DNA of 64,000 bases from NCBI GenBank assembly GCA_022897995.1, contig GCA_022897995.1_4763.1. One strand, given 5' to 3'. This stretch comes from a phage. Below the pieces are notes generated by a model, which did not search any database, was not told the DNA's origin, and saw only the letters and a program-made list of their open reading frames with translations. The position numbers and the translations under genes are program-made. Numbering within the stretch: position 1 is the stretch's first letter; each line of letters begins with the position of its first letter. Shown piece after piece: positions 1,737-51,836 of this stretch.

Positions 1737-2168
1737 ATGGTTTATCCAACTCCTAGTAAGATTTACATTGATGATACCCATTTTATGGTTGATATGATGG
1801 GTATAAAGTTTAGTGGTAATGTTAAAATTGTAGAATGGGAATTACACGGTCAACCTGTAACCGATTATGACCATTATATCCCTTTCGGTGGTGATGATAA
1901 CTTTGTTTCGTTTGACCATGAAGGTTACATGAACTTTGAGCAAGACGATGTACCTTTATATCTGGCAATGATGGATATTCCGACTAAAACAGAATATACA
2001 GAGGGTGATTGCGATTGTTGCGGATACTACAGCGTAACAGATATTAAGCTGCCATCCGGTAAAGAACTTTACAAAGAGGACCATTTCGGAAACTGCAATT
2101 TTCCTTGCGGTTGGCAAGAATTTTTCGAACTGGTAGAGATTGAGCGAACTTATTTGAGGAAGGGATAA
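1737..2168 (+). CDS. hypothetical Cys-rich protein
   Basis: 143-aa ORF with GAGGATTATATA ribosome-binding context; CDCCGY and CNFPCG clusters. Confidence 0.5.
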   Translation: MVYPTPSKIYIDDTHFMVDMMGIKFSGNVKIVEWELHGQPVTDYDHYIPFGGDDNFVSFDHEGYMNFEQDDVPLYLAMMDIPTKTEYTEGDCDCCGYYSVTDIKLPSGKELYKEDHFGNCNFPCGWQEFFELVEIERTYLRKG

Positions 2169-2980
2169 TGAAGAAAGCATTAGGTTTAATTCCCTATACG
2201 GGCAATAAGGAAAAGTTATTGCCTGGTGTTAGTAAGTATTTCCCTAAGCAATATAACCGCTTTGTCGATGCCTTTTGTGGTGGCTTGAGCGTGTCTCTGT
2301 ACGTAGAAGGGGATGTGCTGGCTAATGACTATGATCACCGCTTAATTGATGCTTACAAAGCGATTGACGAGTGTCCTGATCCGGTTTCTACGATCAAGCG
2401 TATTATTGCCGAGAATGGTTTGTCTCGCGAAGATAAAGACGCTTACATGACATTCCGTAAGAAGTATAACGAGAATCCAGATCCGCTATCGCTGTTTGTG
2501 TTGATTCAGCATAGTTTTAGCAACATTAACCGACATAACCGGAAGGGCGAATTTAATGCTAATTTTGGTCGCCGGACTTTTAACGAAAACGCGGTAGAGC
2601 GTGTCCTGAATTTTAAAGAAGAAAACAAAGACGGTCGAATCAATTTTACGTCTGGTCGTTATGACGAGATCGAGATCTTGCCTGGTGATTTCGTTTATTT
2701 GGACCCGCCGTACCTTATCACTTCTGCTGAATATAATAAGTTCTGGAGTGACGAGGAAGAGATTAAATTCTACCAGTGGGTAGAATCTATTATGGCGCGT
2801 GGTTTTCAGTTTGGTATCAGTAATGTCACACATCATAAGGGAAAGGTAAATGATCATCTTCTTGACTTTATCAAGCGGAATGATTTAAACTGCGTCCTGT
2901 TGAATAAGACCTATTGTCTAGATCGTTCAGGTGGCAAGTCTTCTGATACGCAAGAAGTTTATGTAACTAACGTAGATTGA
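2168..2980 (+). CDS. dam: DNA adenine methyltransferase (Dam)
   Basis: FCGGLSV (AdoMet motif I) and DPPY catalytic motif; co-linear with remembered T4 Dam. Confidence 0.85.
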   Translation: MKKALGLIPYTGNKEKLLPGVSKYFPKQYNRFVDAFCGGLSVSLYVEGDVLANDYDHRLIDAYKAIDECPDPVSTIKRIIAENGLSREDKDAYMTFRKKYNENPDPLSLFVLIQHSFSNINRHNRKGEFNANFGRRTFNENAVERVLNFKEENKDGRINFTSGRYDEIEILPGDFVYLDPPYLITSAEYNKFWSDEEEIKFYQWVESIMARGFQFGISNVTHHKGKVNDHLLDFIKRNDLNCVLLNKTYCLDRSGGKSSDTQEVYVTNVD

Positions 2981-12767: not shown

Positions 12768-13055
12768 ATGTTAGTACACAATGCAATCGCACACATGGTT
12801 TACTCTCGATTTGGGTGCATGGAAGAAATCAATATTACCGACGCGGATTTAGATCTGATGCAAGTCGAAGGCCAGACATATCTGAAAAATAACGGCGTGA
12901 ATATCGGTAAAGCGCGTGTGCGTGAATTGTTGGTTGAATATATTCTCTCTGAATTTGGCATTAGTGCTTTCGGTGTGAAAGAGATTGCACCGAAGCGCGA
13001 AATTTCTGATAAAATGATCAAGAAATGCCAGAAAGCACGACGTAAGGGTTTCTAA
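12768..13055 (+). CDS. hypothetical protein, translationally coupled to downstream NTPase
   Basis: ATG 12768 after GAGGAA; stop overlaps next start (TAATG at 13053-13057). Confidence 0.45.
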   Translation: MLVHNAIAHMVYSRFGCMEEINITDADLDLMQVEGQTYLKNNGVNIGKARVRELLVEYILSEFGISAFGVKEIAPKREISDKMIKKCQKARRKGF

Positions 13056-14564: not shown

Positions 14565-15098
14565 GTGTCTGATTATGTAAACAATAAAGAGCTTTACGAA
14601 GAAATTTGCCGTTGGAAACAACGAATTGCAGCCGAAGGTCGACAAGTGCCAATGAGCAACCAAATCGGCCTAGCAATTATGCAAATCTCTAAAAATCTAT
14701 CACGGCGTTTTAACTTTTCTGGCTATAGTCAAACATGGCGCGAAGAAATGATCGACGATGGAATCGAAGCGGCGGTCAAGGGTTTGATTAATTTTGACGA
14801 GACAAAGTATAAAAATCCTCATGCTTACATCACGCAAGCGTGCTTTAATGCTTTTGTGCAGCGCATTAAAAAAGAAAGAACAGCGACAGCCGCAAAATAC
14901 AAATATTTTGTGCATCATGTATATGACGAACGCGACGCTGATATGTGCCAGATTGCGGATGAGGCATTCATACAGGACATTTACGATAAAATCAACAACT
15001 ACGAGGAATCGGTCAATAAACCGAAAGCGCCAAAGGTTGAAGATGTATTGACCGAGGAATTGCCTAGCCTGGACCAATTTTATGAGATTGAAAATTAA
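14565..15098 (+). CDS. 55: late-transcription sigma factor gp55
   Basis: [47 protein letters not shown] match remembered T4 gp55; GTG start. Confidence 0.85.
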
Positions 15099-15315
15099 CA
15101 TTTCCCGTTTGCTGGAAGAAGCAGAGTTTGAAACTGACCTTGTGCCGTATTTCGCCAAATTATTTTTGAGAGATTGCGGCGTTCCGGTGATTATCGATCC
15201 GTGCAATATCAAATCACCGGATCTTGAGGTCTTGACGGGTACAATCTCACATAGCTATAATGTTTCGGAAGATGAATTTTCTTTAATCATCGACTATATC
15301 CCAGAAGGAAAATAA
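15082..15315 (+). CDS. hypothetical protein
   Basis: 77-aa ORF overlapping gp55 stop. Confidence 0.35.
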
Positions 15316-15316
15316 T

Positions 15317-15604
15317 ATGACTTACGATGAACAACATGACCAGATTGCAGTGAATGAAGTAGACAAAGTACAAGCAGAACTAGAGGCGAAAGCCGCTAAG
15401 AAAGCGGAAAAGATCTTGCGTAAGAACTCGCGAGAGATTGCACGCCTTAAGCGGTGGGCTGAACAAGCTATCATCGATGATAACCGTGATGCGTATATCT
15501 ACGCTATCGGAAAGTTACGTGATATCTACAAACAGCCACACACGCCAGAACTGCTTTCTGCTATGTGGATTAGTACACGGCAAACGGTATTAAGTATGCT
15601 GTAA
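15317..15604 (+). CDS. hypothetical protein
   Basis: 95-aa ORF, helical. Confidence 0.4.
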   Translation: MTYDEQHDQIAVNEVDKVQAELEAKAAKKAEKILRKNSREIARLKRWAEQAIIDDNRDAYIYAIGKLRDIYKQPHTPELLSAMWISTRQTVLSML

Positions 15605-15694: not shown

Positions 15695-16720
15695 ATGAAA
15701 ATTTTGCTTTTGGGTGATCTGCATACTGGTATCGGTGGCGATGATCCGTGGGTGCATGAGTATATTCTTGATACCATCAAGAAAGCGGTTGAATACTCCA
15801 AAGAGCATAATATTAAGACATGGATTCAAACAGGGGATTGGTTTGATTGCCGCAAGGCGATAACTCATGAAACCATGAAATTTAACCGTACTAAGGTCAT
15901 CCCATTACTGGAAGAGGCTGGTATTACTTGTTATATCACGGTCGGGAATCATGATATGTTTAAACGAAACAAGATCCAGCCTAACGCGCCGCGTGAAGTG
16001 TTAAGCCAGTATGATTGCATTAAGGTTATTGATAAACCGGAAACAGTTACCTTTGATGGTGTATCATTTGATCTGTTCCCGTGGTTTTGTGATGACAATA
16101 AATCAGAGATTTTAGAGTTTATTCAAAACTCATTCAGCGAATATTGTGTAGGCCATTGGGAATTGTCCGGTTACTATTTCTATAAAGGGCTAAAATCCGA
16201 AGGTTATAGCGCGGACTTCCTCAAGAAATACCGTGAAGTGATTTCCGGTCACTTTCATACTATTAGTGATGGGGGTAACGTAACGTATATTGGCACACCA
16301 TACACACTAACGGCGGGTGACGAAAACGACCCGCGTGGGTTTTGGGTATTCGATACCGACACACACAAAAAAGAGTTTATCCAGAATGATAAAACTTATC
16401 ATGTGCGTATCACTTACCCGTCAGATGATAAAATCGACGTAGAACGCTATAAGGGGCTGAGTGTGCGTCTTATTGCAACGGTCGCTGATAATGGGTTGAC
16501 TAAGTTAGAAAGCGCGTTAGAGACCGTTGTACACAAGCTAAAAGTGGTCCATAAGCTGGAGAGTAGCGCATCACAGGAAACAGGTGTTATTGAAGTTAAA
16601 AGCACTATTCAGATGGTCTATGAATATCTGGAAGAACAAAACCTAGAACCGGAAGAACTTGCGGCGGTCAAGCGTATTTCTGATGAACTTTTAGCCGAAG
16701 TAAATAGCGCAAAAAGTTAG
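15695..16720 (+). CDS. 47: recombination nuclease subunit gp47 (SbcD/Mre11-like)
   Basis: 341 aa; phosphoesterase motifs LLGDLHTG, TGDWFD, GNHD, GHFH. Confidence 0.85.
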   Translation: MKILLLGDLHTGIGGDDPWVHEYILDTIKKAVEYSKEHNIKTWIQTGDWFDCRKAITHETMKFNRTKVIPLLEEAGITCYITVGNHDMFKRNKIQPNAPREVLSQYDCIKVIDKPETVTFDGVSFDLFPWFCDDNKSEILEFIQNSFSEYCVGHWELSGYYFYKGLKSEGYSADFLKKYREVISGHFHTISDGGNVTYIGTPYTLTAGDENDPRGFWVFDTDTHKKEFIQNDKTYHVRITYPSDDKIDVERYKGLSVRLIATVADNGLTKLESALETVVHKLKVVHKLESSASQETGVIEVKSTIQMVYEYLEEQNLEPEELAAVKRISDELLAEVNSAKS

Positions 16721-19810: not shown

Positions 19811-20027
19811 CAGAGTAACACAGCCGGAGTTAGAATTGTATACCTTAATCAATCTATATTCCGGTGAAGAATATGTAGTTAGTATGGGGGATATGAAAAA
19901 CAGCATATACAGCGATGCAGACATAACAAAAATGTTGTCTTGTCGTCATCATGAGTTTATGCTGGTCCCCAACTTTGATAAACTTGATTACCCTGATGCT
20001 GGGGTTGCAACAAACTTTAGAACGTGA
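19797..20027 (+). CDS. hypothetical protein
   Basis: 76-aa ORF, weak start context. Confidence 0.3.
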   Translation: MLTFDRVTQPELELYTLINLYSGEEYVVSMGDMKNSIYSDADITKMLSCRHHEFMLVPNFDKLDYPDAGVATNFRT

Positions 20028-20057
20028 TATACTGATTTTATTTTGGAGATTAATATT

Positions 20058-20435
20058 ATGACTACTTCCGCAAACCTGGCTAAAATTACTGTAGCAGACA
20101 TTCAGAACAAGAAAACCAGCCTCGAATTTGACCGAGCAATGAACAAGATCCGTAAAGCGTGGGTACTGCAAATGCCGGAAAGCGAGAAAGCTAAAATGAA
20201 GGTTATCCCGCAGCAAGCACGCTTTGAACTGTACGCGCATATTGATGATATGGTGCAAAAAGAATGGATCGCTGCAATGCGCAAGTATTACGATGATTCA
20301 ATTGCTAAAGGCGCTAAAACTATTCGAGGTAAAGATATTCTCGAAAAGGGTTATCAGATTGACACTGATGAACTGCTGATTGAAGCCGCTAGCGTAGTAG
20401 TAACTCGTCTGATCGCAATTGCTGATGGGAAGTGA
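20058..20435 (+). CDS. hypothetical protein; RpbA-like by position and size only
   Basis: 126 aa between genes 46 and 45, where T4 has rpbA (129 aa); no sequence confirmation. Confidence 0.35.
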   Translation: MTTSANLAKITVADIQNKKTSLEFDRAMNKIRKAWVLQMPESEKAKMKVIPQQARFELYAHIDDMVQKEWIAAMRKYYDDSIAKGAKTIRGKDILEKGYQIDTDELLIEAASVVVTRLIAIADGK

Positions 20436-20439
20436 TAGA

Positions 20440-20817
20440 ATGAAACGTATGAGCTTAAAAGAACAAATGCTATTCATCCTACAAAATAGTAAATTATGTC
20501 ATATTCCGTTTGACTATATCAAAGATAATGATGTAATGAACTACCGTCACGGGATAGAGTGTATTGAGTGGTATTTTGTCCTAGATAAATTTGTTGATGA
20601 TGTGATTCGTCGTAAACTTGCGTTTGATGTTCGTGGTGATCTGGTGTATCTAGACGGCAAGAAGACCGCAAAGAATCCTGTGACTGTCTATGCTCTGCAA
20701 CAATACTTGACAGCTTACATTGGATTGAAGTATACTCACTCATCCGACAAGGAAGCCGAGAAAAAATTTATCGAAAGAATGCTAAAGATTCAAAATGAGC
20801 ACGAAGTAAACCCGTAA
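20440..20817 (+). CDS. hypothetical protein
   Basis: ORF between the rpbA-position gene and gene 45. Confidence 0.4.
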   Translation: MKRMSLKEQMLFILQNSKLCHIPFDYIKDNDVMNYRHGIECIEWYFVLDKFVDDVIRRKLAFDVRGDLVYLDGKKTAKNPVTVYALQQYLTAYIGLKYTHSSDKEAEKKFIERMLKIQNEHEVNP

Positions 20818-20847
20818 TTAATTGATTAACATGATAAAGGTGATTTG

Positions 20848-21534
20848 ATGAAACTGACTAAAGAAACCATTGCTACCCTGAAAAACTTTTCCGCTATTAA
20901 CCCAGGTATCATCCTGAAAAAAGGAAACGTCCTGATCACCAAAAACATGACAAACGTTGTATATGGTGAAGCGACTCTGAATCAAGAACTGGAACACGAA
21001 ATCGGGATCTATGATCTTAACTCTTTCCTGGGCATTCTGAATCTGGTAGGCGATGAAGCAGATATTACGGTTGATGACCGCACTGGTAACATTCGTGTGT
21101 CTAACGACCGTCTGAAAATTAATTATCCTGGTGCTAGTGCTGCTGCTATCGTATCACCGAAAGGCCGAGTTACTCCACCTGCAAGCGATGTAGATTACGA
21201 ACTGAGCAACGACGATCTGAAACAGCTTATGAAAATGAGCAATCAGCTTAAAGTGGATCGCCTTGAATTTCTTCCGATTGATGGTCGTCTGATGATCAAA
21301 GGTTGGGAAGAGATTGACAAAAATAATCCTAATGAGATGTTTTGTCTTGATATGGGCGAATATACCGGAACCGCAGACTTCCATTTCTTTATTCGTAAAG
21401 ATAACATGAAACTGGTTGCTACTGACTTCGGCGATTACAAACTTAGCTTCACTCGCCGTAAGGCTGTATGGCTGGCAAGTGAAACCGTATCTTATATGAT
21501 CGCGTGTGACCTTGACTCCAGCTACACCGACTAA
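20848..21534 (+). CDS. 45: sliding clamp gp45
   Basis: 228 aa; MKLTKETIATLKNF N-terminus matches remembered T4 gp45 (MKLSKDT...). Confidence 0.85.
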   Translation: MKLTKETIATLKNFSAINPGIILKKGNVLITKNMTNVVYGEATLNQELEHEIGIYDLNSFLGILNLVGDEADITVDDRTGNIRVSNDRLKINYPGASAAAIVSPKGRVTPPASDVDYELSNDDLKQLMKMSNQLKVDRLEFLPIDGRLMIKGWEEIDKNNPNEMFCLDMGEYTGTADFHFFIRKDNMKLVATDFGDYKLSFTRRKAVWLASETVSYMIACDLDSSYTD

Positions 21535-21566
21535 TATAATGTTTGTGGGGAGTGTAAATACTCCCC
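21512..21566 (+). promoter_or_regulatory. early promoter followed by GGGGAGTG/TACTCCCC stem-loop (PeSL)
   Basis: TTGACT 21512-21517, 17-nt spacer, TATAAT 21535-21540; inverted repeat 21547-21566. Confidence 0.55.
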
Positions 21567-21599
21567 GTTTTAATGATGTAATTTGTGAGAGGTGATTAT

Positions 21600-22574
21600 A
21601 TGCTGAGTGTTAATGAAAATGAGTTTCAGTGGGAACAGAAATACCGTCCGAAATCAATTTCTGAATGTATTCTGCCGGAAGCAGATAAAAAGATCTTCGC
21701 GCAGATTGTTAAACAAGGCCGAATCCCTTCTATGATCCTGCATAGCCCATCGCCTGGTACTGGTAAAACAACCGTTGCTAAGGCGCTTTGCGAAGATGTG
21801 GGTGTTGATTATCTGTTTGTTAACGGCGCAGATTGTAAGATTGATTTTATCCGCGATGAGATTACACGCTTTGCGCAGAGTGTATCACTCGATGAAGAAA
21901 AACGAGAAAAAGGCAAAGTTGTTATTATCGATGAGTATGACCGAGCGGGGCTAGCTGATGCTCAAAGACACTTGCGTAGTTTCTCTGAGGCATACTCAAA
22001 CAACGTGACATTCATTATCACAGCAAACGATCTAGAAGGTATTATCCCAGCGTTACGATCTCGATTTGATCCCATCACGTTTGGATCTCCGACCAAAGAT
22101 GATCAGCTTCGCATGATGAAAGAAATGATCGTCCGGTGTAAAGCAATTCTTGATAAAGAAGGTGTGCCAGTAGAAGAAATGCGCGTATTAGCGGAATTGG
22201 TTAAGCAGAACTTCCCAGACTTCCGGCGCGTAATGAAACTTTTGGACCGCTACGCTAAACATGGTAAAATTGATGCTGGCGTATTGAGCATGGTTATCGA
22301 AAGTAGCAATACCGAAGTAACCGATGTGGTGGAAGCACTTAAAACTAAACAGTTTGCTAATGTGCGTAAACTTGCACCGCGATATACCAATACATACGCT
22401 CAATTTGTCAAGAAACTTTATAATGAGTTGTATACTCAAGTTAAGCCAGCTTCTATTATTCGTCTCACTGAGATTATCGGTGAAAATAATCAGATGTTTG
22501 CGCACGCGGCTGATAAAGAGATTCACATTGTCTTTTTGTTAATGCAATTAATGGTTGAATTGGAGTTCGTATAA
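21600..22574 (+). CDS. 44: clamp loader large subunit gp44 (AAA+)
   Basis: Walker A SPSPGTGKTT, Walker B VVIIDEYD, SRF-type motif LRSRF. Confidence 0.9.
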   Translation: MLSVNENEFQWEQKYRPKSISECILPEADKKIFAQIVKQGRIPSMILHSPSPGTGKTTVAKALCEDVGVDYLFVNGADCKIDFIRDEITRFAQSVSLDEEKREKGKVVIIDEYDRAGLADAQRHLRSFSEAYSNNVTFIITANDLEGIIPALRSRFDPITFGSPTKDDQLRMMKEMIVRCKAILDKEGVPVEEMRVLAELVKQNFPDFRRVMKLLDRYAKHGKIDAGVLSMVIESSNTEVTDVVEALKTKQFANVRKLAPRYTNTYAQFVKKLYNELYTQVKPASIIRLTEIIGENNQMFAHAADKEIHIVFLLMQLMVELEFV

Positions 22575-23152
22575 TGTTAGGTCAATTTTTCGGTGAAGAT
22601 GATACACAATTAAACGAGCATGAAATTGCATGGCGCTCTCGTGATTGGGAAAAGGTGTCTGAATTAGCTGACACATTCACCGAGAAAACCGACAATGCAT
22701 TATTTGCTCTGATGGATCATATCACCTTAGATAAACAGCGCGTTAATGTGGGAAACAATTCTGCATATAACCAGAGATGGATTAACACCGCTCTTTCCCA
22801 GCACGCAGATTGCCTATATAGCGCGTATGTGATGAATTTAATCGGTCATGGCCTCCCAGATCAAATGCATTTTGATTATCTCTTACAGAGTATTTCTAAG
22901 GGGAAACGATACGGTAAATGGGCTAAACTAACAGAAGAATTGGACCAAAAATTGGTTTTAATGGCAGTGGCGAAAGCATATTGTGTAAATATGGATGACG
23001 CCCGGTTTTATCTCGATTTGGCTAATGAAAAGGGATATATGGACAAGTTATTGAAGCACATTAAACCGTATGCGACCGATGAACTTTTGGCGGGTGTTAC
23101 TAAGAATCAGACAGAAAGGAAACGACTTAAAAAGATTATAGAAAGGTGGTAA
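22574..23152 (+). CDS. 62: clamp loader small subunit gp62
   Basis: 192 aa; start overlaps gp44 stop (TAATG); conserved 44-62 order. Confidence 0.7.
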   Translation: MLGQFFGEDDTQLNEHEIAWRSRDWEKVSELADTFTEKTDNALFALMDHITLDKQRVNVGNNSAYNQRWINTALSQHADCLYSAYVMNLIGHGLPDQMHFDYLLQSISKGKRYGKWAKLTEELDQKLVLMAVAKAYCVNMDDARFYLDLANEKGYMDKLLKHIKPYATDELLAGVTKNQTERKRLKKIIERW

Positions 23153-23153
23153 A

Positions 23154-23516
23154 ATGATTGAAATTAATTTGATTAGTCCTGAAAACTTCCTTAAAATTAA
23201 GGAGACTTTAACCCGCTGCGGCATTGCCAACAATCGAGACAAGACACTGTATCAGTCTTGTCATATTCTCCAGAAGAAGGGGCGCTATTACATCGTTCAT
23301 TTCAAGGAGTTGTTGAAATTAGATGGTCGTAGTGTTAAAATGACGTGGGAAGATGAATTACGCCGTAATAACATTGCAAAACTTCTTGCGCAGTGGAATC
23401 TGTGTACCCTGATTGATAGTGATTTTGAAACTACCGAAGTTAATAATTTCCGTGTACTGTCTTTCAAACAGAAAGAAGAGTGGACGCTGATCGAGAAATA
23501 TCAGATCGGACGCTAA
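23154..23516 (+). CDS. regA: translational repressor RegA
   Basis: MIEINLISPENFLKIKETLTRCGIANN...YQSCHILQKKG matches remembered T4 RegA. Confidence 0.85.
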   Translation: MIEINLISPENFLKIKETLTRCGIANNRDKTLYQSCHILQKKGRYYIVHFKELLKLDGRSVKMTWEDELRRNNIAKLLAQWNLCTLIDSDFETTEVNNFRVLSFKQKEEWTLIEKYQIGR

Positions 23517-23536
23517 GATACTGATGGGATAGGGGT

Positions 23537-23566
23537 ATTGACAAACTAGGTCGATTCCCCTATAAT
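23537..23566 (+). promoter_or_regulatory. sigma70-like early promoter for gene 43
   Basis: TTGACA 23537-23542, 18-nt spacer, TATAAT 23561-23566; flanking AGGGGTA/TTCCCCT inverted repeat. Confidence 0.55.
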
Positions 23567-23598
23567 GAGTGTCTTTCGTAAATGAAGGAGTTTATATT

Positions 23599-24800
23599 AT
23601 GTATTTTCTGTCATGTGAGCGAGTGGGTGATAAGATCTACGAGCGTTATATTGATGATGCTGGACAAGAACAAGAGCGTTACGTTGAATATACGCCAACT
23701 TTATTTCATCATGCCGCGCCTGGTATGGTTACGAATTATAAAGATATCTATGGCAAGCCTTGCATTGCTAAAAAATTCCCATCTATGAACGAGGCCAACA
23801 AATGGCGTAAAAAGATGGGAGAAATGGGGCAAGAGGCGCTAGGGATGGATGATTTTATCATCTCCTATCTGTCTGATACGTATAAAGGCGAGATTCGATA
23901 TGACCGAAATAAAATCCGTGTAGCATGGGTTGATATCGAGGTCACTGCCCCAGAATTTCCTAAACCAGAAGAAGCGAAATATCCTATCGATGCAATTACG
24001 CATTATGATTCCGTACATGATCGTTTCTTTGTATTTGACTTGAAAGGAAAAAACGGTGAAATCTGGGAAGTAAGCAAGTCTATTCTTCGACCTGATATTG
24101 TAGAGCGTGTTGTTTATAACGTCTATGACACAGAAGATGAATTGCTGTTAGAATACATCCGATTCTTTGAGGAAAACCGACCCGTTGGTTTCACTGGCTG
24201 GAACACAGAAACATTCGATATTCCATATATCATTAAACGTATCAGTAATAAGTTCGGAAGTAGAACCGCTAACCGTCTAAGCCCGTGCGGTAAGATTAAA
24301 TCCCGAATCTCGCAGGATGATTTTGGCAACGAGCGTGAAGCATTTACGATCATGGGGATCGAAAGCCTTGATTATATTGACCTGTACAAGAAATTTAGCT
24401 TTACGACTCAACCAACATATGCATTAGATTATGTTGCTGAATATGAGACAGGAATCGGTAAGGTTGATTATGATGGTCCGTTAAAGAAATTGCGTGATGA
24501 CAACCATCAACTTTACATCGATTATAACATCGGCGACGTTGATCGTGTGCTGGCGATTGATAAAAAGCGTGGATTTATCGATCTTGTGTATAGTCTATGT
24601 TTCTATGCAAAGATTAAATTTAACCATGTTTATAACCCGATGAAAGTATGGGATGCTATTATCTTCGGATCTCTGAAAGCTGAGGGTAAAGTAGTACCGG
24701 AAAATAAGATACAGCCTAAGCAGACTTATCCGGGCGCATTCGTAAAAGAACCTGTGCCGAATGCTTACCGTTGGATGATGAGCTTTGACCTTACTTCCCT
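23599..24800 (+). CDS. 43: DNA polymerase gp43 (family B), exon 1
   Basis: N-terminal and 3'-5' exonuclease region co-linear with T4/RB69 gp43; ends ...SFDLTSL in motif A; ATG 23599 after AAGGAG. Confidence 0.85.
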
Positions 24801-25914
24801 AAACTGATATGGGGCTTTCACTGGTGACAGTGATCGAATAACCTGCTTAATTGCTGGGAAATCTCTAAGGAGACAATCAGCAGCAGTTGCATTTTGAGCT
24901 AACGTGTCTTATAATGTATATAGATATTGATATACATTGGAGGCGCGAGATGAAAGACATTTTAAGAAAGTACGAAATACATAACGAGGAAGCATTAAAC
25001 GACTACATTAAACTGGTGTCTAATCCGTATCAGGGTGAAGAATATTCCGAGGTGCATCATATATGCCCGAAGTCAATGTTCCCGGAATATCGGTTAGATA
25101 AATGGAATCTTGTTAGGCTTAAGTTTGAAGACCACGTCGAGGCACATCGGTTATTGTGCTTAATATTCAATAACGGTGAATGCAAGAGAGCATATGCTTT
25201 CATCTCTAGAGGATCTTATGACGATAAAGTGAAGGCGTTAACCAAAGATGCATTCGCTGGAGACAATAACCCAGCCAAGCGAGAGGAAGTTAGACTGAAA
25301 ATATCCGAAAACAAGACCGGAAAAGCCAGAACCGATATGAGCGGAAAGAAATATTTCGGGGCTGATGAGGACACTATACGAAAAGGTCTTGATTCTATGG
25401 CAGAAAAGCTAAAGAATACTGTTATCGTTAAGGATAAGGAAGGAAATCGGTTTAGAGTTAGTTGTGATGATCCTAGATATGTTTCCGGTGAGTTGGTATC
25501 ATTTAATACTGGCGAGAAACGCGAAAATTCAGCGTCTAAACGACCGGAAGTTATGAGTAAAATAATGTCAAAACGTAATGAAACTTATGCTAAATTTGCA
25601 AGTTTCACATTTGATGAAATGGTGAATTTTCTTGTTGAAGCACACAATTCAGGAAAAGAGATTTTTGGTAAGAAGAAACCTTTTGCTAAGAATTATAGCG
25701 GATACTGTAAGAGAACACCGTTTGATCAAAATGAGCTTAAAGATGCAGTTGTTCAACGACTATCGAAAGGGTAACGAACCGAGTAGAGTAGAATCAAGCG
25801 ATTCGAAATGGCAGGATTCTCTATGAGAATGTGATATAGTCTGATCTACATGGTGACATGTAGCAGTTCGCAAGAGAACGGGCGCGGGAGTAGCGAACCG
25901 CGCTGAACATAATG
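24801..25914 (+). mobile_element. group I intron with internal HNH endonuclease ORF
   Basis: Exon U 24800 / intron 3' G 25914; P 24849-24861, Q 24875-24884, R 25751-25762, S 25833-25841 core-like blocks; splicing restores DLTSLYPSIIRQ. Confidence 0.7.
24950..25774 (+). CDS. intron-encoded HNH homing endonuclease with NUMOD3-like repeats
   Basis: EVHHICPKS...N...EDHVEAH HNH core; GDNNPAKREEVRLKISE NUMOD3-like; GGAGG 24939-24943 then ATG 24950. Confidence 0.8.
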   Translation: MKDILRKYEIHNEEALNDYIKLVSNPYQGEEYSEVHHICPKSMFPEYRLDKWNLVRLKFEDHVEAHRLLCLIFNNGECKRAYAFISRGSYDDKVKALTKDAFAGDNNPAKREEVRLKISENKTGKARTDMSGKKYFGADEDTIRKGLDSMAEKLKNTVIVKDKEGNRFRVSCDDPRYVSGELVSFNTGEKRENSASKRPEVMSKIMSKRNETYAKFASFTFDEMVNFLVEAHNSGKEIFGKKKPFAKNYSGYCKRTPFDQNELKDAVVQRLSKG

Positions 25915-27391
25915 GTATCCATCAATCATCCGTCAGGTTAACATTTCGCCGGAAACAATCGCCGGATCTTTTGATGCTGCACCGATGCACGAGTATATCA
26001 ATAAAACTGCACCACGTCCGAGTGATGAGTATTCTTGCTCGCCTAACGGATGGATGTATCGAAAAGATATTCATGGTATCGTACCGATTGAGATTAAAAA
26101 GGTATTCGATCAGCGTAAGCAGTACAAAAACATGATGTTGGCGTGTGATCGCAATGCTGAACTCTGTAAAGCGATTCTACACGATGAAAATCATGTTTAC
26201 GGGGGAACCATTAGCTATAGCGTTGAAGTTCGTCACGACTTCGATGAAGCGTTTAAATCTATGCTTTCGGAATTAAGCAAAGATGCCTTAGAGAAATTGC
26301 TGGAAGAATGTAAAGACGAGTCGATCTTGTGCAATACAAACCAGCTTTCTCGAAAAGTTTTGATCAACTCCCTTTATGGTGCGTTGGGGAATCCTAAATT
26401 CCGTTTTTATGATCTCCGTAACGCTAGTGCGATCACCTTGTTTGGTCAGCTTGCAATTCAGTGGATTGAGCGTAAGATTAACGAATACTTAAACGAGCTT
26501 TGCGGAACAACCGATTTTGCATATGTTCGTTATTGTGATACTGACTCCGTTTATGTGCTGGTTAACAATGTTGTTGATAAGGTTGGCGGGGAAGACCGTT
26601 TCGACGATACCGAAAAACTTGTTGACTTCCTTGATAATTTCGGTAAACATCGAATGGAACCTATTATCGACAAGGGATATCGCGAGTTATGCGAGTACAT
26701 GAACAACTATGAGCACTTGATGTTTATGGACCGCGAGGCAATTGCTGGTCCTCCGTTGAAATCTGCGGGTATCGGTGGATTCTGGACGGGTAAAAAACGC
26801 TATGCTCTTAATGTTTGGGATATGGAAGGAACGCGCTTTGCTGAGCCTAAGCTAAAAATCATGGGCTTGGAAACGCAACGTAGCTCCACCCCTAAAGCAT
26901 GTCAGAAATCACTGAAAGAATGTATTCGCCGTATGTTGCAGGAAGGTGAAGAGTCATTGCAGGAATATTACGGTATTTTTGAGCAAGAGTTTAGAAAACT
27001 TGACTATCTTGAGGTTGCTGCGGTATCATCTGCAAACAACCTACAGAAATACAGCGATTCAAACGGGTATCCGATTAAGGGTTGTCCGTATGCGGTTAAG
27101 AGTGTATTGTGCTATAATCGTAATGCTCGAAAATTCGGACTAGATCCGATTCGTGAGGGCGAGAAGGTTATGATTGTACCGCTTAAAGACCGAAATCCGT
27201 TTGGAGAAATCTGTTTTGGTTGGTTGTCCGGTACTCGTATTCCGCCAGAAATTGAATCAGAGGTGTTAAAGTGGTTGGACTGGCCTTTGTTGTTTAATAA
27301 GACTTTCGTCAAACCACTGGAGAACATTACCACGGCTGCAAAGCTGCAATATGAAAAGGTGGCATCGCTTACGGACCTGTTTGACATTTAA
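25915..27391 (+). CDS. 43: DNA polymerase gp43, exon 2 (palm/fingers/thumb)
   Basis: YPSIIRQVNISPET..., KILINSLYGALGN, YCDTDSVYV (motif C) in frame from 25916. Confidence 0.85.
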
Positions 27392-27452
27392 GATAAAGTG
27401 TGTATAATGGCGGGTGTTGGGTGACGATACCCGCCAACGTGAGAAATATACT

Positions 27453-27641
27453 ATGAGAGACATTGAAAAGATTAAACGTGAACGTGAAGAAGGCATAGAG
27501 CATTTCAAGAAAGTTCACGGAAATCACAGCAACGAAGTATTTGTGACGATCGATGTTGGTGCGATGAAAAAGTTAATTCAAGAGCACTACAAAGATCGAA
27601 TAACAATGAAGCAATTAAAGTATTACGGATTAACTGAATAG
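27453..27641 (+). CDS. hypothetical protein
   Basis: 62-aa ORF between gene 43 and uvsX. Confidence 0.35.
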   Translation: MRDIEKIKREREEGIEHFKKVHGNHSNEVFVTIDVGAMKKLIQEHYKDRITMKQLKYYGLTE

Positions 27642-27652
27642 AGGTATTAATA

Positions 27653-28723
27653 ATGTCTGTACTTGAAAAACTGAAAAAGAACTCTACCCTGAAAACTACT
27701 TCGGTACTGTCTAAATCCAGCTTCTTTAACGAAAAAACAAATACTCGCACTAAGATCCCGATGCTGAATATTGCGTTTTCAGGTGATCTTAAAAAAGGAT
27801 TTCAATCTGGTCTGATTTTCTTTGCTGGTCCGTCTAAGCACTTTAAATCAAACATGGGATTAACTTGTGTTAGTGCATACATGAAACAGAATCCTGATGC
27901 GGCGTGTTTGTTCTTTGATTCTGAGTTCGGTATTACACCCGCTTATCTTGAATCTATGGGTGTAGATCCTGATCGCGTGGTGCATGTTCCAATCAAGAAC
28001 ATCGAAGAACTTAAATTTGAAATCATGAACCAGCTTGAGCAAATTACCCGTGAAGATAAAGTGATCATCTTTATTGACTCAATCGGTAACTTAGCAAGTA
28101 AAAAAGAAGTTGAAGACGCGATTAATGAGAAATCCGCACAGGATATGACGCGAGCGAAAGCACTTAAAGGCTTGTTCCGTATGGTTACGCCGTATCTGAC
28201 TATGAATGATATCCCGTGCATCGCTATTAACCACACTTACGAAACGCAAGAAATGTTTAGTAAGACCGTTATGTCCGGCGGTACGGGCGCGATGTATTCA
28301 GCCAATGAAGTTTTCATTATTGGTCGTCGTCAGCAGAAAGAAGGAACCGAAATTACTGGTTATGATTTTATCCTGAATGCGGAAAAATCACGAACCGTTA
28401 AAGAAAAATCGAAGTTCCCGATTAGCGTAACATTTAGCGGTGGCATCGATCCTTATTCCGGCTTGCTGGAATTGGCTGTAGAGTTAGGTTGGGTAGTGAA
28501 ACCGTCAAACGGCTGGTATTCTCGTTCCATCCTGAATACTGAGACCGGAGAGATGGAAACCGAAGAACGCAAGTTCCGTGCTAAAGAAACCAATAGCATT
28601 GAGTTCTGGAAACCACTTCTGACAAACGATAAGTTTAACGAAGCAATCAACGATCATTATAAGCTGGGGCAAGTGATCAGCGACGAAGCAGTTGACAAAG
28701 AAATCGAAGATATGTTAGCATAA
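27653..28723 (+). CDS. uvsX: recombinase UvsX (RecA-like)
   Basis: KIPMLNIAFSGDLKKGFQSGLIFFAGPSKHFKSN, CIAINHTYETQEMFSKTVMSGGTG match remembered T4 UvsX. Confidence 0.95.
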   Translation: MSVLEKLKKNSTLKTTSVLSKSSFFNEKTNTRTKIPMLNIAFSGDLKKGFQSGLIFFAGPSKHFKSNMGLTCVSAYMKQNPDAACLFFDSEFGITPAYLESMGVDPDRVVHVPIKNIEELKFEIMNQLEQITREDKVIIFIDSIGNLASKKEVEDAINEKSAQDMTRAKALKGLFRMVTPYLTMNDIPCIAINHTYETQEMFSKTVMSGGTGAMYSANEVFIIGRRQQKEGTEITGYDFILNAEKSRTVKEKSKFPISVTFSGGIDPYSGLLELAVELGWVVKPSNGWYSRSILNTETGEMETEERKFRAKETNSIEFWKPLLTNDKFNEAINDHYKLGQVISDEAVDKEIEDMLA

Positions 28724-28733
28724 CTATGGTAGT

Positions 28734-28757
28734 AAAGGGGCTACGTGCCCCTTTTTC
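28734..28757 (+). terminator. intrinsic terminator
   Basis: AAAGGGGC-TACGT-GCCCCTTT followed by TTTTC. Confidence 0.6.
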
Positions 28758-28778
28758 ATATCTAGAGAGGATTATATT

Positions 28779-29096
28779 ATGGATAAGAAACCAACAAGTT
28801 TAGAAGAAGCACACAGCTTGATTCAAGAAGCAATGAAGACAGTTATTCAGGAATTGATAATTGTTGATGAAGAGGGAGAACATCATATTGTCTATATTCA
28901 TAATGTTGAATACGATCCAGACACTAAAGGTATTGTGGTCGACTACTCCACGCCGTCAGATCGTGATGTGGTATATCCACACGTCATTAAGGCGTTAACA
29001 GCGCAGATCAAAGAAGCAGAAGAAAAGTTGAAAAAAGAAACTTTCTGGTATAAACTCAAGACCTTTGTTATGCGTGTAGTTGGGGGCTATGTATGA
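28779..29096 (+). CDS. hypothetical protein at the gene-40 position
   Basis: 105 aa between uvsX and gene 41 as T4 gene 40; no sequence confirmation. Confidence 0.35.
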   Translation: MDKKPTSLEEAHSLIQEAMKTVIQELIIVDEEGEHHIVYIHNVEYDPDTKGIVVDYSTPSDRDVVYPHVIKALTAQIKEAEEKLKKETFWYKLKTFVMRVVGGYV

Positions 29097-30505
29097 TTAA
29101 AACTATCTTTTCACAGTTGATTTACAATGGCGCATTCTTTACGAATGTATGGCCTCACCTTAAAGCGGACTACTTCACCGAAGACGAAGAAAAACTGATT
29201 TATAAGCTGATTAAAAAGCACGTAGACGAATATTCCAATATTCCTACGCCAACTGCATTACAGATTGCTTTAGACAAGGAGAGAGGCAATCAGACAACAT
29301 ATGAAGGGGCTAAAACTCTTCTTGATTCGCTTGAGAATACACCGGAAGACCTTGATTGGTTAATGAAGGAAACAGAAAAATTTATCCGTGACCGAGCTAT
29401 GTATAATGCAATGTCACGGGCACTAGAGATTCAGGCGAACGCACAACTACCAAAAGAGAAACAGAATAAGAAATTGCCGAGTGAGGGTGCTATTCCTGAG
29501 ATCATGCAGGAAGCACTATCCATTACGTTTGATTCTGATGTAGGTCATGACTGGTTTAATGACTTTGAAAAACGATTCTTGCTATATCAGACTAAGGCGA
29601 ATAAGATCCCGTTTAAGCTGCCGATGTTGAATAAAATCACGAAAGGAGGGGCGGAAAGAAAAACGCTAAATGTGTTGCTTGCTGGTGTAAACGTTGGTAA
29701 ATCGCTTGGACTGTGTTCTCTTGCTGCGGATTATATGGAATGTGGTTATGATGTATTGTATATCTCAATGGAGATGGCAGAGCATGTAGTAGCAAAACGT
29801 ATCGACGCAAACTTGCTTGACATTACATTAGATGAATTGGATAATGGTAATGTTTCTTTTGCGGAATATTCCGCACGCATGAAGCGTGTTAAGAATAAGA
29901 AGATCGGAGATCGTCCGGTTGGAAAATTGATGATCAAGCAGTATCCGACTGGTGGCGCGAACTCCAATCACTTTGAGGCGTTAATGAATGAATTGCGACT
30001 CAAGAAACAGTTTAAACCTGATGTTGTGATTGTTGACTATCTGGGGATTTGCGCATCGTCTCGCTTGCGTGTATACTCTGAAAATAGTTACACACTAGTT
30101 AAGGCGATTGCGGAAGAACTGCGAGGATTTTTTGTTAAGTGGGATGTTGTTGGTTGGACTGCGGCACAGACTACCCGCGCGGGTTGGGATGCTTCCGACC
30201 TTAACATGAGTGATACCGCTGAATCAGCAGGTCTTCCGGCTACTGCCGACTTTATGTTGGGTGTTATCGAAACCGAAGACCTGGCTAAAATGGGCGTCCA
30301 ACTCATGAAGCAGATCAAGTCTCGTTACGGTGATAAGAACTATTATTCACGGTTTAACGTTGGTGTGAAGAAAGGCAATCAGCGTTGGTATGAAGTACCA
30401 AACCAGATCGCAGATCAGGAGAATGCACAAGTTAAACCACAAAGCGCACAGCAAGCCGAGAAACGAGAAAAACTCGACGAGCTAGCAAATAACATGACTT
30501 TCTAA
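29093..30505 (+). CDS. 41: replicative helicase gp41 (DnaB-like)
   Basis: 470 aa; Walker A LAGVNVGKS, Walker B VVIVDY, C-terminal RecA-like fold motifs. Confidence 0.9.
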   Translation: MIKTIFSQLIYNGAFFTNVWPHLKADYFTEDEEKLIYKLIKKHVDEYSNIPTPTALQIALDKERGNQTTYEGAKTLLDSLENTPEDLDWLMKETEKFIRDRAMYNAMSRALEIQANAQLPKEKQNKKLPSEGAIPEIMQEALSITFDSDVGHDWFNDFEKRFLLYQTKANKIPFKLPMLNKITKGGAERKTLNVLLAGVNVGKSLGLCSLAADYMECGYDVLYISMEMAEHVVAKRIDANLLDITLDELDNGNVSFAEYSARMKRVKNKKIGDRPVGKLMIKQYPTGGANSNHFEALMNELRLKKQFKPDVVIVDYLGICASSRLRVYSENSYTLVKAIAEELRGFFVKWDVVGWTAAQTTRAGWDASDLNMSDTAESAGLPATADFMLGVIETEDLAKMGVQLMKQIKSRYGDKNYYSRFNVGVKKGNQRWYEVPNQIADQENAQVKPQSAQQAEKREKLDELANNMTF

Positions 30506-30511
30506 TAAAAT

Positions 30512-30527
30512 GCGCCCTGCGGGGCGC
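30512..30527 (+). terminator. GC-rich stem-loop (weak terminator candidate)
   Basis: GCGCCC-TGCG-GGGCGC; no clear U-tract. Confidence 0.3.
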
Positions 30528-30555
30528 TGGTGAATGATTTGATAGGAGATATAAC

Positions 30556-31191
30556 ATGATCGCTAATGCTTTACCGCCAAAATGGATCGTAAGTCGCTTT
30601 TATACTCTCAAGGAAGGTAACGCACCTGATGGTCGTCCGATCCGAGATCTGTTTCTGGAGATGACTACAGCCGAAGCACAGTTTTATAATGATCTGACAG
30701 ACGATAAGCCATTTCTCGTAAATTCGGTGGACCTCGATGGCAATGTCACATCAATCATCACACATGGTGGGGGAGTGAAAAATATTACTTCTCTGCGTGA
30801 TCACGGTTGGGAAATTGCTTGTGTATTTCCTGCGGATGTACGCGGATTCTTTGATGAGGTATCTGATATTAAAGTAAATGCACTAGAACCATATAACGAG
30901 AACCCACCCCTGAAAGAAGAAAAAGAGTTGACACCGGAAGATGTAGGTAGTACACTACACCCAGACCTATTTAAGAAGATTAGCGGTTTATGGACTGTTA
31001 CCCTGTATCCAACCGCATTAGGTCTAGAATTGGGTATGCCAACTTATTCTGATATTGATAACTGGAATAAGAGCATTGATAAAGATGTTGAAAAACAGCG
31101 AAATAATGCTAAAATGCAACTTAAAGAGAAACGCAAAGATCTTGAACGACAACTGAAAGAAACAAAACATTTGCTTTCTACATTCGCTTGA
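30556..31191 (+). CDS. hypothetical protein
   Basis: 211-aa ORF; basic coiled-coil C-terminus. Confidence 0.45.
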   Translation: MIANALPPKWIVSRFYTLKEGNAPDGRPIRDLFLEMTTAEAQFYNDLTDDKPFLVNSVDLDGNVTSIITHGGGVKNITSLRDHGWEIACVFPADVRGFFDEVSDIKVNALEPYNENPPLKEEKELTPEDVGSTLHPDLFKKISGLWTVTLYPTALGLELGMPTYSDIDNWNKSIDKDVEKQRNNAKMQLKEKRKDLERQLKETKHLLSTFA

Positions 31192-31221
31192 TCTATAATG
31201 AAACTCTAAGGAGACTATATT

Positions 31222-31599
31222 ATGAAAAATATGATTACGCCGGAAGATGTAGCATTCAAAACCGCATTCAACGGAGATATTCTTATTTTTATCGACGGTA
31301 AACACGCCGGAATGATTGAACCGGAAGGTCGCTGGGGTGTTGCTGAACTATATAACGTGGCGGGTGTAGAAGGTCATAAAACAGCACTTGTTTTCTTGTC
31401 GGATAAAGATCAAATGCGTCGAAAAATTGCTGCGCTCTATAATGAAGCAGTATATTTCTACGAACCGTTTCATCGTATTAAAACGATCTCCCGCGTGACT
31501 CGAAAAGATGTTAATGCTTGTGTTATCAAGATTGTAGAGAATCAGGATAAACTGACGAAAGACCAGATTGTTGACTTACTGAAAGAGATTATTCTATGA
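31222..31599 (+). CDS. hypothetical protein
   Basis: 125-aa ORF after AAGGAGACTATATT. Confidence 0.45.
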   Translation: MKNMITPEDVAFKTAFNGDILIFIDGKHAGMIEPEGRWGVAELYNVAGVEGHKTALVFLSDKDQMRRKIAALYNEAVYFYEPFHRIKTISRVTRKDVNACVIKIVENQDKLTKDQIVDLLKEIIL

Positions 31600-31772
31600 T
31601 TGGCTTTAAACAGTTTGTTGAAGAAAATAAACTCAAAGAAGATATGACCGCTGGCGATGCTGGCGGCAATCCTGAGAAGATCGCAGCAGGGGAAACGAGC
31701 GGATCTATTACCAATCGTGGACCTAGTGTAGCGGGTAAAGAAAAACGCAAAAAGGAGAAAGACGGTGCTTAG
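31596..31772 (+). CDS. small hypothetical protein (58 aa)
   Basis: ATG 31596 overlapping previous stop; Gly/Lys-rich. Confidence 0.3.
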   Translation: MIGFKQFVEENKLKEDMTAGDAGGNPEKIAAGETSGSITNRGPSVAGKEKRKKEKDGA

Positions 31773-31779
31773 TATCATC

Positions 31780-31923
31780 ATGTTTATCGTTGGCTTGCTG
31801 TCCGCTATTATCGGTGTTGTTGTTTTCGGATTATCTGGACACAAAACAAAAACAGAAAAGTTATCCGAGATCACAATGTATGTTGGTGTAGTTCTCATTC
31901 TGTTGTCGGTGGCGCTTAAATGA
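31780..31923 (+). CDS. small single-pass membrane peptide (47 aa)
   Basis: Two hydrophobic helices FIVGLLSAIIGVVVF and MYVGVVLILLSVAL. Confidence 0.3.
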   Translation: MFIVGLLSAIIGVVVFGLSGHKTKTEKLSEITMYVGVVLILLSVALK

Positions 31924-32123
31924 TTACGATGAAATGTCTTAAAAGCACATATGCACTTTTTGAAGCCGGAAAAGAATATGAATTTACAGAAATTGATTCG
32001 GTAGGCCGTTTTCGTGTATTCTCTTACACATCGCCAGATGGTAGTGTCTACAAATTTGGCTTAGATGAGAACGGAGAGAATGAAAATGAAAGTGTGGGAA
32101 CTTTCATGAAATTTGAGTTATAA
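31920..32123 (+). CDS. hypothetical protein
   Basis: 67-aa ORF overlapping previous stop. Confidence 0.35.
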   Translation: MITMKCLKSTYALFEAGKEYEFTEIDSVGRFRVFSYTSPDGSVYKFGLDENGENENESVGTFMKFEL

Positions 32124-32138
32124 GAGGTTAATAACATC

Positions 32139-32693
32139 ATGAAACGGTATTGTGATGAACATCCAGAAGAATGGAAAGACCTTGTTTATATGGGCGTATC
32201 GTATCCAGAATATGAAATTAGTTCTTATGGTAAACTAAGAAATAAAGCCACTGGCAAGGTCAGATCAACTAAAATAACAAAAGGTTATGTCTCTTGTAAT
32301 ATCAGAGATTACGCCAACAGAACAAAGTCAGGCAAGCCAAAGACCGTCGGCGTTTATATTCATAGGGCATTAGCAGAAGCATTTATACCAAATCCAAACA
32401 ACTACCCTGTAGTAAATCACAAATTTGGTGATAAAAAAGATTTTGATCTGTATGGCCTTGAGTGGACAACACAAAGAGAAAATCTTATACACGCTAAAGA
32501 AGAAGGATTGAACAAAAACTATGGAGAAACACACGGAAACGCAAAGTTAACTGACCATCAAGTAGAAGAGATCAGGTCTAAACAGGGTGTTGCGTCTGTA
32601 AAAGAACTTGCTGTAATATACGGAGTGCACACGATAACCATAAGAAGAATATGGAAGAGTCAGACCAGAACATCACGATATAAAGAGAGGTGA
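32139..32693 (+). CDS. free-standing HNH endonuclease (NUMOD4-HNH family)
   Basis: YEISSYGKLRN (NUMOD4-like) then HRALAEAFIPNP...VNHKFGDKKD...LEWTTQREN HNH_3-type core. Confidence 0.75.
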   Translation: MKRYCDEHPEEWKDLVYMGVSYPEYEISSYGKLRNKATGKVRSTKITKGYVSCNIRDYANRTKSGKPKTVGVYIHRALAEAFIPNPNNYPVVNHKFGDKKDFDLYGLEWTTQRENLIHAKEEGLNKNYGETHGNAKLTDHQVEEIRSKQGVASVKELAVIYGVHTITIRRIWKSQTRTSRYKER

Positions 32694-33726: not shown

Positions 33727-33740
33727 TTAATGAGGTGAAT

Positions 33741-34259
33741 ATGTCAGAATTTAATTCTTGTGCTGGTCTGGTTAACGAAAAAGATATTAACGCGGCTATC
33801 GCCGCATATCATCACGCGATTGCAGAAGGTAAAGATCCGTTTCAGGTGATGCTAGAAATGCAAACTGGTTTGCAGGTTGCACTATCCGAAAAATTTGATT
33901 GGGTCCCAAATCCAACTAAGCTAGAGACTTGCGGTGAAATGCTGGATTGGATGCAACGGATGGATGACGCTATCGCAGACGAAACACGAGAGCTTTACAC
34001 ATCGCTGGGTGGAATGTCCAATGGTAAAGATGCAAGTGCAATCTGGAAAATGTGGAAAAAGAACCACGGGGAAGCGCGAGCGCGTAAATTCTCTGAACTG
34101 TCACCAGAAGATCAGCTTGAAGTGAAATTTGAATTTGTGGACGCGATCCACTTCATTCTGTCAAAGATGATCCCGCTGGGTATTAACGCTCAAGAACTCT
34201 TTATTCTGTACTATCTGAAAAATGCTGAAAACTTCGCCCGTCAAGAACGCGGCTACTAA
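33741..34259 (+). CDS. 56: gp56-like dCTPase/dUTPase (MazG-like all-alpha NTP pyrophosphatase)
   Basis: 172 aa; MSEFNSCAGL...DPFQVMLEMQ...KLETCGEM...ILYYLKNAENFARQERGY resembles remembered T4 gp56; adjacent to gene 61. Confidence 0.55.
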   Translation: MSEFNSCAGLVNEKDINAAIAAYHHAIAEGKDPFQVMLEMQTGLQVALSEKFDWVPNPTKLETCGEMLDWMQRMDDAIADETRELYTSLGGMSNGKDASAIWKMWKKNHGEARARKFSELSPEDQLEVKFEFVDAIHFILSKMIPLGINAQELFILYYLKNAENFARQERGY

Positions 34260-51521: not shown

Positions 51522-51836
51522 ATGAGTGATATTAAAACCGATGAAGAAATGCAGGATATTGCAAAGGAATTAACCACCATCATGATCCGTCGCGGATCGT
51601 ATAATGCAAAAACCATTATCGATGAAGTCAATACAGCGGTTAAGGCAATCGAGAAAGTAAAGTCAGACGTTGCATTTGAAAGATACACATGGGAAGATAT
51701 TCGCAATCGAAGCCGCTATAATTTCTTTGTTGATTGTATTATGTCAATGACTGAACACTACGGGCATAGCATGAACGACATTATCATCGATGCGCGTAAA
51801 TTAGCAGAGAATGTTTACGGGAAGTTTCCAGAATGA
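51522..51836 (+). CDS. hypothetical protein, paralogue of 51075-51407
   Basis: ATG 51522; shared C-terminal motif with upstream gene. Confidence 0.4.
   Translation: MSDIKTDEEMQDIAKELTTIMIRRGSYNAKTIIDEVNTAVKAIEKVKSDVAFERYTWEDIRNRSRYNFFVDCIMSMTEHYGHSMNDIIIDARKLAENVYGKFPE

Follow-up and report, generated by a model that had tools for sequence, protein, structure and literature searches.

Absence of the T-even cytosine-modification genes from a 64-kb genome segment of an RB49-type Krischvirus

The closest described relatives of the phage considered here are RB49, Phi1 and JSE, and the absence of cytosine-modification genes is an already known, long-published and defining trait of these RB49-type phages. 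In the comparison by Petrov et al. (2010, Table 4; PMC2993671), gene 42, alc and denB were recorded in T-even phages, JS98, RB69, CC31, Acinetobacter phages and some Aeromonas phages; the RB49 type falls outside this distribution and inside that of genes 56 and denA. HpaII and NheI, both sensitive to cytosine modification, were shown to cut RB49 DNA, but not T4 DNA (Yaung et al., 2014; PMC4041780). Nikulin et al. (2025; PMC12115623) noted that Krischvirus has neither endonuclease IV nor the genes for hmC and that it transduces plasmids, RB49 was reported to carry out generalized transduction of plasmid DNA (PMC12115623), and the formation of cytosine DNA in T4 was stated to require that 42, 56, denB and alc all be mutated (PMC12115623). 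A 2026 study aligned the nrdD-to-rIIA region of RB49, T4, T6 and RB69 and detected no modified nucleoside by HPLC-MS in the DNA of Krischvirus TB34 (PMC13390438). Because both the gene distribution and the cutting of RB49 DNA have been published, the finding described below is a rediscovery; its value is for annotation, in that the contig can be identified as that of an RB49-type phage with, very probably, ordinary cytosine DNA.

The window, by which is meant the whole 64,000-nt stretch of phage DNA analysed, is, as judged from its nucleotide relationships, an RB49/Phi1/JSE-type Krischvirus, that is, a "pseudo-T-even" coliphage. When three segments (1-25000, 20000-32000 and 39001-64000) were used as megablast queries, about 60-70 phage genomes, including RB49, Phi1, JSE, kvi, G5211, G2494, MIZ4 and ECD7, were found to be collinear with the window at 94-98.6% nucleotide identity over 87-100% of each query. 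RB49 is 96-98.6% identical to the window where the two align, and kvi, G5211, G2494 and MIZ4 are 95-98.5% identical across all three segments. Collinearity and high identity to Krischvirus were both found, and the taxonomy of the hits reads Straboviridae; Krischvirus. No record among the phage genomes matched is identical to the window, which is therefore new as an isolate or contig within a genus that has been sampled well. The G+C content is 40.7%, versus 35% in T4. Krischvirus records range from 155 to 176 kb, and the window amounts to about 40% if the genome measures about 164 kb. RB49, Phi1 and JSE resemble it in gene order and content throughout, including the two junctions described below, in the presence of gp56 and Dam, and in the absence of 42, a-gt, b-gt, alc and denB.

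With T4 and other Tequatrovirus phages the window shares the replication, recombination and nucleotide-metabolism core, in the same order and at 50-65% protein identity (for example, 57% for gp41 and 51% for gp46 by tblastn). In the T4 record the order uvsX-segA-b-gt-42-imm-imm.1-43 gives an interval of 3,635 bp between gene 43 and uvsX, compared with 261 bp in the window, from the end of gene 43 (27391) to the start of uvsX (27653). The flanks of this spacer are readily assigned. The second coding segment, or 3' exon, of the DNA polymerase gene 43 (25916..27391, plus strand) corresponds to residues 402-892 of RB49 gp43 with 100% identity (tblastn), matches T4 gp43 with 58% identity over 25916-27382 (tblastn) and contains the Pfam domain DNA_pol_B, while the first segment matches T4 gp43 with 52% identity over 23602-24801 (tblastn). 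The uvsX recombinase gene (27653..28723, plus strand) matches T4 UvsX with 63% identity over 27668-28717 and contains the Pfam domains T4_UVSX_C and RecA.

A sigma-70-type promoter of the T4 early type, TTGACA-16 nt-TATAAT with 12 of 12 consensus matches, lies at 27381..27408 on the plus strand, where it covers the last nucleotides of gene 43 and is oriented to read toward a 62-aa ORF and uvsX. One such site per 500 bp is close to the mean of 1.1 obtained from shuffled sequences, and the match is not statistical proof; at the matching place after gene 43, the RB49 annotation records a "hypothetical early promoter". The 62-aa ORF (27453..27641, plus strand, ATG start), a homologue of RB49p025, is the sole gene between 43 and uvsX; its reading frame spans 27414-27641, or 75 aa if counted from a GTG. 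The product belongs over its full length to phrog_12120 (function unknown; E 3.5e-41), no Pfam family was found in it by Pfam scan, and it bears no resemblance to gp42, beta-gt, imm or imm.1. Counterparts with at least 95% identity occur in 59 phage records. Thirteen other records contain weakly similar ORFs (<60%), and the five of these that were listed are phages, about 46-49 kb in size, of Klebsiella, Salmonella and Escherichia. The 62-aa ORF is a conserved genus-level ORFan. That the 261-bp spacer might hold a remnant of 42 or b-gt was considered and rejected, as no tblastn match was obtained and the promoter and the conserved ORF fill the spacer. The 12-kb region from 45 to 41 measures about 10.9-12.8 kb in all 25 relatives among the matches listed, with no 3.6-kb insert in any of them.

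The second modification locus of T4 is similarly reduced. The T4 record gives the order 47-47.1-a-gt-mobB-a-gt.2-a-gt.3-a-gt.4-a-gt.5-55, with an interval of 3,152 bp between 47 and 55, versus 596 bp in the window. Here, gene 55, encoding the late sigma factor (14565..15098, plus strand; 61% identity to T4 gp55 over 14571-15086; equivalent to RB49p043), is followed on the same strand by a 77-aa homologue of T4 a-gt.5 (15082..15315; 32% identity, E 2e-7; phrog_1169; Pfam DUF5491 at 21.0 bits, under the cut-off of 27), a 95-aa homologue of a-gt.4 (15317..15604; 44% identity, E 3e-12; Pfam DUF2654, 1.3e-22; phrog_951) and gene 47, encoding the SbcD-like nuclease subunit (15695..16720; 56% identity to T4 gp47 over 15695-16630; Pfam Metallophos). 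The 55-proximal part of the T4 module is thus kept, and a-gt.3, a-gt.2, mobB, a-gt and 47.1 are absent. A preliminary description of this DNA had stated that only a 62-aa ORF separates gene 43 from uvsX where T4 has 42 and b-gt, and that alpha-gt is missing between 47 and 55, leaving two small ORFs at 15082-15604. The ORF map, the T4 tblastn matches to the flanking genes and the T4 record bear out both statements, and the two small ORFs can now be named as the a-gt.5 and a-gt.4 homologues.

The presence of a gp56-like dCTPase and of Dam, also noted in that description, was confirmed. The gene 56 homologue (33735..34259, plus strand), of the dCTPase/dUTPase family of NTP pyrophosphohydrolases, shows 49.7% identity to T4 gp56 over 173 aa (E 5e-51) and matches Pfam dUTPase_2 at 24.7 bits (cut-off 22.9) and phrog_173 (2e-36). 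Dam, a GATC N6-adenine DNA methyltransferase (2168..2980, plus strand), shows 45.9% identity to T4 Dam (E 2e-63) with a Pfam MethyltransfD12 match of 1.6e-30. In sum, gp56, Dam, a-gt.4 and a-gt.5 are common to T4 and the window, DenA and Cd are common to T4 and RB49, and gp42, alpha-gt, beta-gt, imm, imm.1, alc, denB, ndd and arn are present in T4, but not in the window. Between 55.2 and gene 55, the window also encodes a 489-aa protein (13055-14524), homologous to RB49p044, which is annotated as hypothetical. It gives a weak N-terminal DEAD-box helicase match (E 3.3e-6) and belongs to phrog_2467, of unknown function; the T4 record has no counterpart at this position.

The modification genes were sought in the whole window and in the complete RB49 genome. 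In all six frames of the window, T4 gp42, alpha-gt and beta-gt gave no match by tblastn (best E 3.9, none reported and 0.85, respectively), and the set of gp42, a-gt, b-gt, alc, denB, ndd, arn, motA and asiA gave chance matches there, with E of at least 0.37. Pfam scans of 100 window ORFs, essentially all those of at least 40 aa on the coding strand, revealed no Thymidylat_synt, glycosyltransferase, C5-methylase or TET/JBP family. For the 17.3-38.8 kb part of the window, the joint scan listed 25 of 49 families, ten of the larger ORFs of unknown function were scanned singly, and a few of the smallest ORFs there are covered by the six-frame tblastn rather than by a single Pfam re-scan. For a-gt and b-gt, only chance matches were obtained in the window and RB49 together (E of at least 0.72), and for alc, denB and arn the best E values in the window or the whole of RB49 were 0.36, 6.7 and 0.043, none of them significant. 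In the complete RB49 genome (164,018 bp), both the annotation and six-frame tblastn indicate the absence of gene 42, a-gt, b-gt, alc, denB, ndd and arn, while the annotation (299 features) includes 56, dam, cd, td, frd, denA and gene 1. No candidate modification enzyme was recognised among ten more RB49 proteins (158-485 aa) that are encoded outside the window.

In the whole of RB49, T4 gp42 matches only its paralogue, the thymidylate synthase td (E 0.008). This match doubles as a control for sensitivity, since the search was evidently able to see even a distant protein of the ThyA fold. Across 50,697 phage records, T4 gp42 found matches in 1,504 (tblastn). The RB49 td product (410 aa) was itself considered as a disguised hydroxymethylase and rejected: it scores 284 bits against Thymidylat_synt, its gene adjoins frd, and it has Asn in the motif LPFNVASY where gp42 has Asp, which indicates specificity for dUMP. 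An unusual feature of this protein (L005:6870-8102) is an insertion of about 125 aa between "WRR" and "DQL" of an otherwise canonical ThyA, and the Pfam match accordingly falls in two stretches. T4 Td is about 286 aa.

Only 64 kb of the present phage is visible, so that any claim about the rest of its genome rests on its relatives; likewise, the basis for absence across the genus is the complete genome of RB49 together with published statements about the genus. The preliminary description had left two branches: a location of the hydroxymethylation genes in another part of the genome, or cytosine that is unmodified or modified in a different way. The first branch holds that hydroxymethylase and glucosyltransferase genes are located in the roughly 100 kb beyond the window and that virion DNA carries hmC or glucosyl-hmC as in T4, and some room for this is given by the share of the genome that the window represents (about 40% of about 164 kb) and by the variable regions of Krischvirus, whose genomes span 155 to 176 kb. 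The whole of RB49, however, lacks these genes by annotation and six-frame search, the published surveys of the genus agree on their absence (PMC12115623, PMC13390438, PMC2993671), and alc, denB and arn, which make hmC DNA workable in T4, are missing as well. The proposed search for 42, alpha-gt and beta-gt homologues beyond the window, carried out on the complete genome of this relative, returned none. Together with the restriction-site record presented next, these data make it extremely improbable that the genes lie elsewhere, while the branch of unmodified cytosine gained support from RB49 digestion, gene absence and site avoidance.

Protective modification of cytosine would be expected to leave restriction sites unpurged, as they are in T4. 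Avoidance of restriction sites was assessed against the expectation of a maximal-order Markov model, with 80 kb of T4 for comparison. For hexamer palindromes containing C or G, the median ratio of observed to expected counts was 0.49 in the window and 0.44 in RB49, versus 0.96 in T4, while for A/T-only hexamer palindromes the ratio was near 0.84-0.91 in all three. Palindromes were found below non-palindromes by the Mann-Whitney test with p = 1e-19 in the window, 1e-20 in RB49 and 0.085 in T4, and hexamer palindromes with a ratio of 0.2 or less numbered 21 in the window, compared with one in T4. Observed over expected counts in the window were 0/29 for TCCGGA, 0/18 for AAGCTT, 0/15 for GAATTC, 0/14 for GGATCC and 0/13 for ACCGGT. 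Sites for HindIII, BamHI, AgeI, BspEI, StuI, SacII, NcoI, PstI, XhoI and other enzymes are entirely missing from both the window and RB49; RB49 has two EcoRI sites. EcoKI sites (AACN6GTGC) number zero in the window (5.6 expected) and zero in RB49 (14.4 expected), versus five in T4 (5.1 expected).

The pattern for GATC is the reverse. The ratio of observed to expected counts is 1.01 in the window and 1.0-1.06 over the two Krischvirus sequences examined, the window and RB49, in which the site is not avoided, whereas T4 strongly avoids it (83 observed versus 265 expected in 80 kb); T4 shows no avoidance of palindromic sites. Retention of GATC in the window is consistent with protection by Dam. 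The purging of C/G-containing palindromes and of EcoKI sites points to DNA long exposed to restriction, fits unmodified cytosine and is unlike the situation in hmC-protected T4, which argues further against modification genes beyond the window. The cause of the avoidance appears to be restriction pressure. This signature is supportive of unmodified cytosine and does not constitute a formal definition of the group.

One published result runs counter to the general picture. HPLC-MS of DNA from Krischvirus SAP, which lacks the known modification genes, revealed about one-third 5-hmdC and about two-thirds alpha-gentiobiosyl-hmdC, with glucosyl-hmdC in trace amounts. SAP was also found to be sensitive to the type IV enzyme BrxU, and the authors of the study identified no candidate genes (PMC13390438). 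The genus could, on this basis, hypermodify cytosine by a pathway without homology to gp42 or the DNA glucosyltransferases, which the window phage may share, and the many Krischvirus ORFs of no known function would offer places for it. In that case, the absence of the known genes would be the sign of a modification route yet to be discovered, perhaps switchable, encoded among these ORFs. TB34, however, which shares 99.96% identity with SAP, is unmodified, and analysis of SNPs pointed to no cause (PMC13390438). Seven T6-like Tequatrovirus phages from the collection that includes SAP have its profile too, HpaII and NheI cut RB49 DNA (PMC4041780), the window ORFs contain no ThyA-like, TET-like, C5-methylase or glycosyltransferase family, and the strong avoidance of C-containing restriction sites indicates that the DNA of this lineage has long been exposed to restriction. 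A hidden pathway of this kind is therefore considered very unlikely. The identity of the SAP profile with that of the seven T6-like phages, taken with the deep site purging in the genus, suggests that a mixed or swapped lysate more probably accounts for the modification reported in SAP.

A narrower form of modification would be site-specific N4- or C5-methylation of cytosine by a phage methyltransferase, rather than replacement throughout the genome. RB49 is annotated with two more "DNA methyltransferases" outside the window, RB49p143 and RB49p189, which would be the candidates. The scans, however, revealed no C5-cytosine methylase family, the domains detected are of the amino-methyltransferase type, and Dam, which acts on adenine, is the sole confidently assigned enzyme. 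The cutting of RB49 DNA by HpaII and NheI (PMC4041780) and the HPLC-MS of TB34, in which no modified nucleoside was present (PMC13390438), also speak against cytosine methylation, to which only a slight probability can be given; were it to occur, it would complement rather than displace the explanation based on ordinary cytosine. As to the individual RB49 proteins, RB49p143 (L003:29465-30304) gives an MTS/Eco57I/N6_Mtase match, of the amino-methyltransferase type, and RB49p189 (L004:20890-21606), annotated as a "DNA methyltransferase", has no Pfam match. Two genes from the latter lies RB49p187 (L004:20041-20559), a 172-aa protein matching GmrSD_N (DUF262; E 4.8e-20).

It is very probable that the window derives from a Krischvirus in which the T4 core has been kept, the whole T-even cytosine-substitution network is missing and the DNA contains ordinary cytosine. 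The lineage would, in this explanation, replicate and package ordinary-cytosine DNA without gp42, glucosyltransferases, Alc, DenB or Arn. At the modification loci of T4, conserved flanks simply abut, with 43, the putative early promoter, the 62-aa ORFan and uvsX in one case and 55, a-gt.5, a-gt.4 and 47 in the other. The phage would polymerise host-type dCTP, and it would escape restriction mainly through the loss of type II and EcoKI sites and through Dam methylation of GATC.

The proposed end state is that of the T4 "dC" mutants (42- 56- denB- alc-), which likewise have cytosine DNA without gp42, DenB and Alc and carry out generalized transduction (PMC12115623). Those mutants have lost gene 56 (PMC12115623), whereas the Krischviruses keep an apparently intact gp56 homologue. 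Since T4 dC phages must lose 56, the retention of this gene is the one feature that is not self-evidently consistent with cytosine DNA, and it would imply that the dCTPase and dUTPase activities are balanced differently or that the nucleotide pools are regulated in another way. RB49 has kept Cd, Td, Frd and DenA, all encoded outside the window. The gp56 homologue most likely acts as a dUTPase/dCTPase that keeps uracil out of the DNA; it would supply dTMP synthesis with dUMP and, through Cd, with dCMP, and together with Cd and Td it would shift the pyrimidine flux toward dTTP for a genome of 40% G+C. It would not, in such a role, exclude cytosine or clear dCTP.

Phages with ordinary cytosine DNA are restrictable, can be targeted by CRISPR and are cut by common enzymes, and their capacity for generalized transduction matters for the choice of therapy phages.

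RB49 has an HNH-AP2 endonuclease gene, RB49p040, between a-gt.4 and 47, which the window lacks. In the window, in turn, gene 43 contains an intron-like insertion in which a full-length HNH gene is located, and an additional HNH/NUMOD4 gene is present. The latter is a free-standing homing-endonuclease-like ORF of 184 aa (32139-32693), just upstream of the primase gene 61, with matches to Pfam NUMOD4 (3e-7) and phrog_59 (1.5e-31); RB49 has no such gene there.

Gene 43 is split within PolB motif A (DLTSL / YPSII) by the stretch 24801-25914, in which the HNH ORF occupies 24887-25774 and encodes a full-length HNH homing endonuclease (phrog_12434). Residues 1-401 of RB49 gp43 map to 23599-24801 and residues 402-892 to 25916-27388, with no start codon before 25985, and relatives annotate the interrupted gene as two "DNA polymerase" CDSs. 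The Rfam model Intron_gpI matches at 25603-25863 with 33.9 bits, under the gathering score of 50 (E 1.5e-6), and the core elements UUCAACGACUA and GAUAUAGUCUGAUCU are conserved in this match. The gene 43 frame would be restored by removal of a group I intron of 1,114 nt, with the 5' splice after U24800, a terminal G25914 and a CU/G junction encoding Leu. In JSE, gene 43 was reported to contain a putative intron whose endonuclease gene is truncated (Petrov et al., 2010; PMC2993671); as the endonuclease gene of the window is full length, its gene 43 intron would be the intact version.

Finally, an 82-aa ORF adjoining the holin gene t (51833-52081) matches the Pfam family Tad2-like (PF11195, Thoeris anti-defence 2-like) at 27.1 bits, only just above the cut-off of 25 (E 6.4e-6), and its product is a possible anti-Thoeris sponge.
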